IMG/VR virus record: IMGVR_UViG_2627853771_000003
Reading direction: 5' to 3' (one strand)
Length of the DNA stretch: 48,551 nucleotides
From: a virus
Taxonomy: Duplodnaviria > Heunggongvirae > Uroviricota > Caudoviricetes
Shown here piece by piece: positions 17,814 to 18,573 of this stretch (positions are counted from its first letter, which is position 1; each line of letters opens with the position of its first letter). The position numbers and the translations under genes are program-made. The notes beneath the pieces are model-generated. The model did no database searches. It worked only from the letters and a program-made list of their open reading frames with translations, and was not told the origin of the DNA.

Positions 17814-18365
17814 ATGACTCAAGACTATGAACTGGTTGTGAAAGGAGTTCGCAATTTTGAGAATAAAGTGGCGGTAACTGTAGCCTTACGGGACAAAAAA
17901 CACTTTGACGGTGAAATTTTTGACCTGGACATCTCGCTGGACCGTGTTGAAGGTGCCGCGCTGGAGTTTTATGAGGCAGCAGCCAGAAGGAGCATCAGAC
18001 AGGTCTTCCTGGATGTTGCTGCCGGGTTATGTGAAGGGGATGAGCAGTCGCCGGAAAAGCGCCCCATAATTTTAGAGGCGCAGAATGTGTGGATAACCTA
18101 CAAAGGAAAGCTACCGGGAAGAATTACTGGTTCTCTGAAGACGCCACCGACGGCATTGCGGTCAGAAAAAGATGATATTGAATCGCCCATTGAAAAACTG
18201 GAGGGCAGCGTCGCTGATCTGAATAAAAAATTGTCGGTGCTGATTCCTTCTGAAGATGAAAAAAAACGCCGCGATGAGCAGTTTGCGGCGTTTTACGATT
18301 ATTGCATTGAAGTTACTCGCAGGAATTTTGTGAAGATTTTTGAGGAGGGTAAATCTCTTCAGTAA
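17814..18365 (+). CDS. YdfR-like (DUF1327) protein between holin and endolysin
   Basis: Begins MTQDYELVVKGVRNFENKV; 183 aa. Confidence 0.6.
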   Translation: MTQDYELVVKGVRNFENKVAVTVALRDKKHFDGEIFDLDISLDRVEGAALEFYEAAARRSIRQVFLDVAAGLCEGDEQSPEKRPIILEAQNVWITYKGKLPGRITGSLKTPPTALRSEKDDIESPIEKLEGSVADLNKKLSVLIPSEDEKKRRDEQFAAFYDYCIEVTRRNFVKIFEEGKSLQ

Positions 18366-18573
18366 GCTTATTGGCGGACGCTGCAATTAATTCAGGAAGG
18401 TCCGCAAGGTCATCTGTCAGTGGATATGATGAAAAATCGGCGGCAGTTCTGTTAAGAAGCGCTTTAACTAATTCCTTTTCCTTCTCCGGCAACAAGTTGA
18501 TTAGAGCTACGACTGCTTGCCTGAGTGCGATTAAATCAGCAAAAGTTTGTTTAGGTAGATTTGTGTAATCCAT
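18313..18573 (-). CDS. hypothetical protein, convergent ORF inside the lysis cassette
   Basis: 86 aa, ATG preceded by GAGG at 5-6 nt spacing; overlaps the 3' end of the YdfR-like gene by about 50 bp on the opposite strand. Confidence 0.45.
   Translation of the reverse strand: MDYTNLPKQTFADLIALRQAVVALINLLPEKEKELVKALLNRTAADFSSYPLTDDLADLPELIAASANKLTEEIYPPQKSSQNSCE

Follow-up and report, generated by a model that had tools for sequence, protein, structure and literature searches.

Why should the lysis cassette of a tailed phage carry a small open reading frame (ORF) on the opposite strand? The question is raised by IMG/VR virus record IMGVR_UViG_2627853771_000003 (Duplodnaviria; Heunggongvirae; Uroviricota; Caudoviricetes), whose whole stretch of 48,551 nucleotides (nt) is here called the window. 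A minus-strand ORF of 86 amino acids (aa), ORF86, is set there among the plus-strand genes essQ, ydfR-like, rrrQ, and rzpQ, with the gene for the antiterminator Q upstream. ORF86 is convergent with the ydfR-like gene, sharing its last 53 nt (18313-18365) with the 3′ end of that forward ORF, and divergent from the endolysin gene, with 113 nt between its start codon and the endolysin ATG (18687). A first reading of these letters, made without database searches (the sequence-only reading), had given the position, strand, and length of ORF86, a good Shine-Dalgarno (SD) sequence, and the overlap with the ydfR 3′ end, all of which match the ORF listing and the sequence; it also had the ORF ending just before the endolysin region, where instead the 5′ end of ORF86 faces the endolysin gene. 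The sequence-only reading suggested a lysis regulator or an antisense brake. On balance, we lean toward a different answer, namely, that ORF86 is a genuine small gene, a moron-type piece of exchangeable accessory cargo in a polymorphic reverse slot of the Q-dependent late operon.

ORF86 is one occupant of a polymorphic slot upstream of the endolysin gene

Two censuses of IMG/VR describe what lies at this position. The first took 80 loci with a close YdfR N terminus. ORF86 was found in 25 of the 80, and 19 carried a different 90-aa reverse ORF (phrog_2411), whose overlap with the 3′ end of ydfR measures 35 nt in locus L127. A 268-aa form of YdfR was present in 2 of the loci, one of which, L128, has with it a 104-aa reverse ORF (phrog_1853). 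A short 116-aa form of YdfR, with no match of the ORF86 type or of the type of gp25 of phage ES18 (see below), accounted for 30 loci, and 4 ran off the contig and were unscorable.

The second census scanned IMG/VR for a conserved block of about 50 nt that lies between ORF86 and the endolysin gene (Table 1). It returned at least 120 loci, of which 114 were usable, and its counts are those among the matches listed. The reverse ORF past the block belonged to phrog_2411 at 36 loci, to phrog_2572 (the ORF86 family) at 23, to phrog_1853 at 9, to a fifth family of 87 to 91 aa at 6, and to phrog_10490 at 2; no reverse ORF of at least 50 aa was present at 28 loci, and about 10 had implausible ORFs only. 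No similarity among the five families was found by BLAST or hhalign (best probability, 16%). All five start 82 to 105 nt past the block and encode soluble proteins of 86 to 104 aa with isoelectric points (pI) of 4.4 to 6.2, so that the other families (phrog_2411, 90 aa; phrog_1853, 104 aa; phrog_10490, 95 aa; and the fifth, 87 to 91 aa) resemble ORF86 in position, orientation, size, and soluble, acidic-to-neutral character. Strain ST865, for instance, has an unrelated 95-aa reverse ORF (phrog_10490) in the position of ORF86.

ORF86 is one interchangeable occupant of a slot that serves at least five unrelated families. Reverse genes had been called uncommon in lysis cassettes by the sequence-only reading; among the matches listed, about two-thirds of the sampled block-bearing cassettes have one, and a reverse gene is the rule, not the exception, in this cassette type. 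Two things appear to be undescribed so far, the polymorphic slot with its shared upstream block and the conserved pairing of the ORF86 family with a convergent forward tail domain. Already known are ORF86 as a hypothetical protein with a PHROG and, as a kind, morons and reverse genes in late operons.

The shared layout was observed at 18574-18688 in the window and at L091:2851-3263, L127:1811-2189, and L128:2317-2761. The phrog_10490 protein (L091:2851-3138, minus strand) has a weak PADLOC match to PDC-S51, a candidate defense protein in that collection (E value, 2.5e-5; 21 bits; residues 3 to 61 of a 376-position profile).

Distant homologues argue that ORF86 is a translated gene

Several spurious antisense ORFs of 83 to 114 aa occur within the same 4 kb, and since their length is similar to that of ORF86, length alone is no evidence and the case rests on comparison. 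In a set of 17 distinct Escherichia coli alleles drawn from 88 related loci, ORF86 is intact in 15. At the loci with damaged copies (L068-L074, L080, L088, and L090), gene callers omit ORF86 or lengthen the ORF to 127 to 128 aa; in the alleles that begin with ACG, a GTG two codons upstream could substitute. E. coli pairs between clades differ by 12 to 18 substitutions, and given so few substitutions and an about equal score for one forward frame (see below), the E. coli alleles alone cannot pick the strand, and distant homologues were needed.

Searching 1.8 billion representatives exhaustively with HMMER, and then searching with a profile, recovered homologues of 89 to 93 aa at 40 to 55% identity in Salmonella enterica prophages and in metagenomes. 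The frame is open in these homologues, with an SD sequence (TAAGGA) and an ATG or GTG at the ORF86-equivalent position, and every length difference among full-length family members is divisible by three. Substitutions fall on codon positions in the order 3>1>2 in the sense frame (e.g., 41/38/24), and the same substitutions read in the forward frame put position 2 above position 1, an order that coding sequence does not typically show. In an alignment that was built on the sense protein, and that is thereby biased somewhat toward the sense frame, BLOSUM sums reach 155 to 221 in the sense frame and at most 156 in any antisense frame (e.g., 221 versus 156); for E. coli compared with L099, the sense frame scores 155 and the forward frame 48 to 68. 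The ratio of nonsynonymous to synonymous substitution rates (dN/dS) in the family is 0.3 to 0.4 between distant members and 0.59 in one close pair from Salmonella. The product of the competing forward frame, 65 aa long, is of low complexity and rich in serine and alanine and matches no PHROG; in the window this frame would start at TTG, with no SD sequence before it. Altogether, these comparisons make it very probable that ORF86 is translated.

ORF86 travels with a mosaic module

Similarity to the Qin prophage of E. coli K-12 is lost near 18020 and regained near 18677, 10 nt before the endolysin ATG. The intervening insert of about 655 base pairs (bp), which is absent from K-12 Qin, holds an alternative, longer C terminus of YdfR, ORF86, and most of the spacer. 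ORF86 arrived with this mosaic module, which also supplied the YdfR C-terminal extension and a hairpin past the ORF86 stop codon. ORF86 has 41.4% GC, and 35.6% GC at third codon positions (GC3), compared with 46 to 52% GC and 47 to 54% GC3 in the holin, ydfR, and lysozyme genes.

Many E. coli chromosomes have a Qin-like prophage to which the window cassette is 100% identical, and the ORF86 product is identical to RefSeq WP_001557934.1 (hypothetical protein; PGAP) in strain 127 and in E. coli B REL606 (locus ECB_RS23620). Its match to phrog_2572 covers residues 1 to 86 of the 86-position profile (hmmscan E value, 4.4e-53). Some part of the cassette was matched in 5164 of 5426 complete E. coli genomes, and a 541-bp ORF86 region was found in 363 of the 5426, with coverage of at least 80% in 293 (5 to 7%). 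A scan of species-representative genomes returned a single E. coli locus.

PhiR63_1, 2H10, and the PhiR12 group (PhiR12_x), all of them sequenced phages, have ORF86 in unchanged position and orientation, and its placement is constant even where the holin and upstream genes are of the Stx-phage type. The ORF86 segment is 93.5 to 98.9% identical across cassettes whose holins are 73 to 78% and whose lysozymes are 82 to 94% identical. Since the segment is more conserved than the flanking holin and lysozyme genes, the module has evidently been spread recently by recombination. The wider family is found in other settings as well. E. coli cassettes pair it with a class II holin and a T4-type lysozyme, and in Salmonella prophages it lies after an Rz-like gene and before the terminase genes, together with Phage_holin_8/3_7 and a GH19 endolysin. 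On other contigs it follows a gene set of Q, TerB-like, and DUF3927 and is paired with genes other than DUF1327.

The convergent partner is an intact mosaic YdfR-like gene

DUF1327 makes up the first ~112 residues of the 183-aa YdfR-like protein and is followed by a C-terminal extension of ~70 aa. PGAP annotates 17814-18149 only, as a C-terminally truncated ydfR pseudogene. The gene encodes an intact 183-aa mosaic protein and is probably misannotated in RefSeq as a truncated pseudogene. Residues 149 to 183 of the YdfR-like protein (156 to 190 in the numbering of the 190-aa ORF) are the part that accompanies the ORF86 family. The tail is 43% identical (E value, 4e-5) to a stand-alone 73-aa protein that is the partner of an ORF86 homologue on metagenome contig L096, and the same 73-aa gene was also called in locus L102, which is of the Salmonella type.

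Forward partners of the ORF86 family vary, comprising DUF1327 fusions of 183 or 243 aa, the stand-alone 73-aa protein, and proteins of 116 and 144 aa. Their N-terminal parts differ and their last ~35 residues are conserved. In all contexts found, the family is antisense to late genes and shares a 3′ overlap of 53 to 59 nt with the forward gene. YdfR of K-12 is reported to bind RNase E's catalytic domain via residues 1 to 72 and to copurify with RNA (PMC13232886).

A derivation of ORF86, as an antisense remnant, from a longer member of the YdfR family (phrog_1085, 296 aa) was considered and rejected. In L091 and L128, which have long forms of YdfR, the gene runs into unrelated sequence, and DNA similarity to the window is confined to 18213-18346.

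Candidate signals for a separate leftward transcript

The conserved block precedes all members of the ORF86 family, including Salmonella and metagenome copies without an adjacent lysozyme gene, and its similarity stops directly past TATGTTAA. It stands upstream of five unrelated reverse-ORF families and was aligned across four of them. Given this conservation, the block may act as the promoter of ORF86. A weak sigma-70-like candidate within it would start a leftward transcript near 18636, and that transcript would overlap neither the coding sequence nor the start of the endolysin gene, being complementary to the ydfR 3′ end and the spacer only.

Two hairpins could be formed by such a transcript (Table 1). 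The one in the putative 5′ leader is kept in E. coli loci L085, L086, and L091, partial in L128 and L100, and absent in L127 and L104. The other follows the ORF86 stop codon and sits inside the 3′ coding region of the YdfR-like gene. Each of the five distinct homologous sequences keeps the 8-bp core of this hairpin paired, one G-C pair having changed to A-U by compensation, and the loop and flanks vary. This pattern fits a terminator for the reverse gene. A promoter and terminator scan called neither element, so both rest on conservation; the scan tool missed the post-stop hairpin because its loop limit is 8 nt and the loop has 12 nt.

The surrounding lysis cassette

The features named here are collected in Table 1.

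Table 1. Features of the ORF86 region, in coordinates of the window
Feature	Position	Strand	Basis or remark
Class II holin, essQ type, first gene of the cassette	17594..17809	+	Pfam PF04971; PGAP essQ
YdfR-like gene, 183 aa	17814..18365	+	Pfam PF07041 (DUF1327), E 3e-42
Mosaic segment, ~655 bp replacing ~85 bp of K-12 Qin	18020..18677	.	Pairwise alignment with K-12 Qin
Terminator-like hairpin: AAAACGCCGC, 12-nt loop, GCGGCGUUUU, more U (8 U total)	18259..18294	-	Fold; ~20 nt past the ORF86 stop
ORF86 coding sequence	18313..18573	-	86 aa; ATG 18573-18571; stop TAA 18315-18313
Shine-Dalgarno-like AGAGG	18579..18583	-	5 nt 5′ of the ORF86 ATG; sequence reading
Perfect 6-bp hairpin CCAGTG-ATGGG-CACTGG	18613..18629	-	Putative ORF86 5′ leader; sequence reading
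Conserved ~50-nt block, ATGGATATTTATCAGGATTTATCGG...GGATATGTTAA	18641..18688	-	Single occurrence in the window; overlaps the first two bases of the endolysin start codon
Candidate sigma-70-like promoter for ORF86	-35 TTTATC 18671-18666; 17-nt spacer; -10 TATGTT 18648-18643	-	Block conservation
Endolysin, rrrQ-type phage lysozyme, 177 aa	18687..19220	+	Pfam PF00959, E 2.6e-24; PGAP rrrQ
DUF2514 Rz-like gene	19217-19714	+	Follows the lysozyme gene

In K-12 Qin, the stop codon of ydfR (103 aa) overlaps the rrrQ start as ATGA, a coupling that is lost in the window cassette. No recognizable SD sequence for the endolysin was found upstream of 18687 (region 18574-18686). An upstream ORF that would couple translation into the endolysin gene was considered and rejected, for the frame ending in ATGA can be started in the window only, L085, L091, L127, and L128 having no start codon for it. 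What happens on the late mRNA shortly before the endolysin gene could therefore matter, since that gene has neither the stop/start coupling seen in K-12 nor an SD sequence nor a conserved ORF upstream.

Other genes of the neighborhood were noted in passing. A 98-aa ORF (19368-19664, plus strand) lies in another frame inside the Rz-like gene and has an LTSC lipobox-like motif; it matches the position of rzoQ, an Rz1-type o-spanin gene, in K-12 Qin. Directly upstream of the holin gene is a gene for an AraC-family regulator (HTH_18/HTH_AraC; 16681-17403, plus strand; 33.5% GC), which looks like another piece of accessory cargo in the late region. An Rfam scan of 15500-21500 at E values up to 1 returned the cspA thermoregulator only and no other RNA. 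That match (19920-20317, plus strand; 109 bits against a gathering score of 78 bits) takes in the leader of a cold shock protein gene (20075-20290) just downstream of the cassette, together with most of its coding sequence.

The ORF86 product and searches for its function

The ORF86 product is a 9.5-kDa acidic protein (pI 4.6) with a grand average of hydropathy (GRAVY) of -0.2, and its AlphaFold model has three helices with a mean predicted local distance difference test (pLDDT) score of 74.6. The protein is predicted to be soluble, with three helices that are amphipathic in the model; a membrane segment is indicated neither by the GRAVY value nor by the helical model, and a signal peptide was not specifically searched for. 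Searches of Pfam, NCBIfam, and PADLOC gave no match, the sole Pfam hit, GCIP_C, scoring 16.5 bits against a cutoff of 36.2 bits. PHROGs returned only an unnamed family of unknown function (phrog_2572), and Foldseek found no match of the model with an E value below 1 in BFVD or PDB. No papers on ORF86 were found by its protein accessions, by DUF1327, or by ydfR together with lysis, and all database names are "hypothetical protein."

A likeness to AcrIIC4, a helical anti-CRISPR protein of 88 aa, was followed and rejected. The two proteins are of similar length and have the motif LP...E..K.L......FSS in common, and AcrIIC4 was the top, nonsignificant Foldseek match in PDB (E value, 4.5; template modeling score, 0.33). 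A PDB profile gave an E value of 0.12 over 62 residues, and hhalign gave a probability of 9% over 25 residues. To our knowledge, the hosts of ORF86 lack type II-C CRISPR systems.

Comparison with known reverse genes in phage late regions

ORF86 resembles the morons of lambdoid phages in being an extra gene among essential late genes, missing from close relatives, with a lower GC3 and a hairpin past its stop codon. The bor gene of phage lambda is a reverse-strand gene just after Rz, and Bor is a lipoprotein. ORF86 is likewise reverse oriented but has no predicted membrane segment. We take the position of the ORF86 family in Salmonella prophages, after Rz and before the terminase genes, to be that of bor in lambda.

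A second likeness is found in phage ES18 (L095, NC_006949, 2501-3053), in which genes 24 (DUF1327) and 25 are convergent and stand among tail genes. Gene 25 is a homologue of the phrog_10490 slot ORF. The depositors described genes 24 and 25 as "possible morons" and placed a putative terminator of gene 25 inside gene 24. The layout of the pair is that of the window at another genomic location; between ORF86 and ES18 gp25 there is no sequence similarity (hhalign probability, 0.2%).

Phage phi80 offers a precedent for how such a gene might be controlled. Its late operon, which depends on Q, is broken by the reverse gene taiEcA, which is expressed in the lysogen and whose level falls upon Q expression (PMC11364771). 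The adjacent forward gene, atiEcA, is a late-expressed antidote, and the arrangement has been named a noncontiguous operon; the region between lysis and packaging genes is also described as a location of phage-borne immune genes (PMC11364771). Like ORF86, taiEcA is a reverse gene in a Q-dependent late operon near the lysis genes and overlaps a small forward neighbor, a layout that would offer a ready way to turn the reverse gene off in lytic growth. The two cases differ in that TaiEcA has 204 aa and its gene overlaps atiEcA at the 5′ end (divergent), whereas ORF86, of 86 aa, meets its partner in an overlap of 3′ ends (convergent). No homology to Tai or Ati was found (hhalign probabilities, 0.4 to 0.5%; BLASTP of the partner against Ati, no alignment), and the likeness to phi80 is therefore an analogy of layout only.

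Weighing the explanations

If ORF86 is exchangeable accessory cargo, it would have a leftward transcript of its own, begun at the conserved block beside the endolysin gene, and this transcription would stop at the hairpin within the 3′ end of the YdfR-like gene. Its expression would then be independent of late transcription and most likely in the lysogen, as for lambda bor or phi80 taiEcA, and opposing Q-antiterminated late transcription would damp it, as in a noncontiguous operon. The protein would bind some host or phage component. Because unrelated genes turn over in the slot, we would guess at a conflict-type role (exclusion, defense, or counterdefense) over housekeeping lysis control. RNA-level cross talk between ORF86 and the late transcript is physically possible, ORF86 being antisense in the late unit; by analogy with phi80, silencing of ORF86 by the late transcript would be the likelier direction of control than the reverse.

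Several observations weigh against this account. Damaged alleles among the 88 E. coli loci include seven in which the start codon is changed from ATG to ACG and one each with a nonsense mutation, an IS3 insertion, and a lost stop codon. The pairwise ratio of nonsynonymous to synonymous polymorphism (pN/pS) among E. coli alleles is 0.3 to 0.6, and the forward frame that shares third positions with ORF86 (65-aa ORF, 18371-18568) scores about equally at short distance. Judged from these alignments, purifying selection on ORF86 is real but weak. The candidate promoter agrees with the consensus at 7 of 12 positions and the promoter scan made no call, and about 25% of block-bearing cassettes among the matches listed have no reverse ORF, so the block could instead be part of the endolysin leader or a recombination joint. 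Covariation in the post-stop hairpin amounts to one pair, which 82 of 500 shuffles reach and which is not significant, and the U-tract is weak in distant homologues. Finally, all known contexts of the ORF86 family fall between Q and the terminase genes, which leaves room for a lysis-linked role.

The damaged alleles bear also on the view that ORF86 is not functional at all, being a chance or "shadow" ORF in the mosaic joint that has stayed open through a young recombining segment, or that the conserved element is the forward frame at 18371-18568 or an RNA or DNA element. The lost starts, gained stop, and IS3 insertion would then be expected, recent spread would account for an E. coli segment that is 93 to 99% identical beside lysozyme genes at 82 to 94%, and ratios of 0.3 to 0.6, an open wobble-sharing forward frame with a similar score at short distance, and the frequency of spurious antisense ORFs of like length nearby would all fit. 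We nevertheless regard this view as very improbable. ORF86 is open across about 50% amino acid divergence and in differing contexts, with its SD sequence and start kept and with in-frame indels only, and at long distance the sense frame scores clearly above the forward frame (155 versus 48 to 68 for E. coli versus L099). The 3>1>2 substitution pattern likewise fits the sense frame and is atypical for the forward frame, whose low-complexity product, with its TTG start, has neither an SD sequence in the window nor a PHROG match.

A dedicated lysis regulator, as the sequence-only reading had it, would require either that the protein tune the holin or endolysin or that the transcript set lysis timing as an antisense brake on the endolysin. 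Such a role would suit a family whose contexts all lie in the late region beside lysis genes, a gene that is antisense to the late transcript with a 53-nt overlap with the ydfR-like 3′ end, and a conserved block that abuts the endolysin start codon. The endolysin gene itself, having no ATGA coupling, SD sequence, or conserved upstream ORF, may be unusually sensitive to what happens upstream, and there is precedent for antisense regulation within a late operon (PMC11364771). What makes this role improbable in our view is the distribution of the gene, for ORF86 is missing from most cassettes with a near-identical holin, YdfR N terminus, and endolysin, including that of K-12 Qin; at least four unrelated families fill the slot in its place, and Salmonella members stand after Rz with other holins and a GH19 endolysin. 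Moreover, ORF86 has no predicted membrane segment (GRAVY, -0.2; three soluble helices modeled), and a transcript from the candidate promoter would miss both the endolysin coding sequence and its start. The constant pairing of the family with a forward gene could instead point to a two-gene conflict module, in which ORF86 would be a lysogen effector (of exclusion, defense, or a toxin-like kind) and the late-expressed C-terminal domain of the YdfR-like protein its antagonist, the 3′ overlap and shared hairpin coupling the two after the manner of tai and ati in phi80. The family is always convergent, with 53 to 59 nt of overlap, with a forward gene that has the conserved ~35-residue end, the hairpin between them is conserved, ES18 has an analogous convergent pair of DUF1327 and a small ORF among its tail genes, unrelated families turn over in the slot as arms-race genes would, and the lysis-packaging interval has been described as a site of phage-borne immune genes (PMC11364771). 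Against these points, the forward tail domain also occurs without ORF86 (L091 and L128), and the conserved tail may be mere read-through into the module's 3′ flank and its hairpin; homology to Tai or Ati is lacking, defense-system models gave no match, and 86 aa is small for a defense effector. We therefore hold a two-gene module to be unlikely, though not far-fetched. A bolder version of the accessory-gene reading would make the slot a hypervariable conflict locus of lambdoid prophages, in which the shared promoter block would drive at least five alternative lysogen-expressed factors of exclusion, defense, or counterdefense, all silenced by convergent Q-dependent late transcription as in a noncontiguous operon, with the late-expressed YdfR-like C-terminal domain as antagonist of ORF86; in this full form we consider it quite unlikely.

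Implications for prophage biology

Under the reading that we favor, ORF86 as exchangeable cargo, the reverse ORF is not to be annotated as a lysis gene; should it prove to be unexpressed, the hypothetical-protein family would have to be dropped. If the reading is true, a site for swappable accessory genes is built into the lysis cassettes of E. coli prophages that are very common, among them the Qin-like one of E. coli B (REL606) and those of the Stx type in O26, O111, and O145 strains. The slot would also furnish a second enterobacterial case for the idea of a noncontiguous operon, in which late transcription silences a lysogen-expressed gene, and its at least five uncharacterized small-protein families would form a compact set of candidates for functions in prophage conflict or lysogenic conversion.

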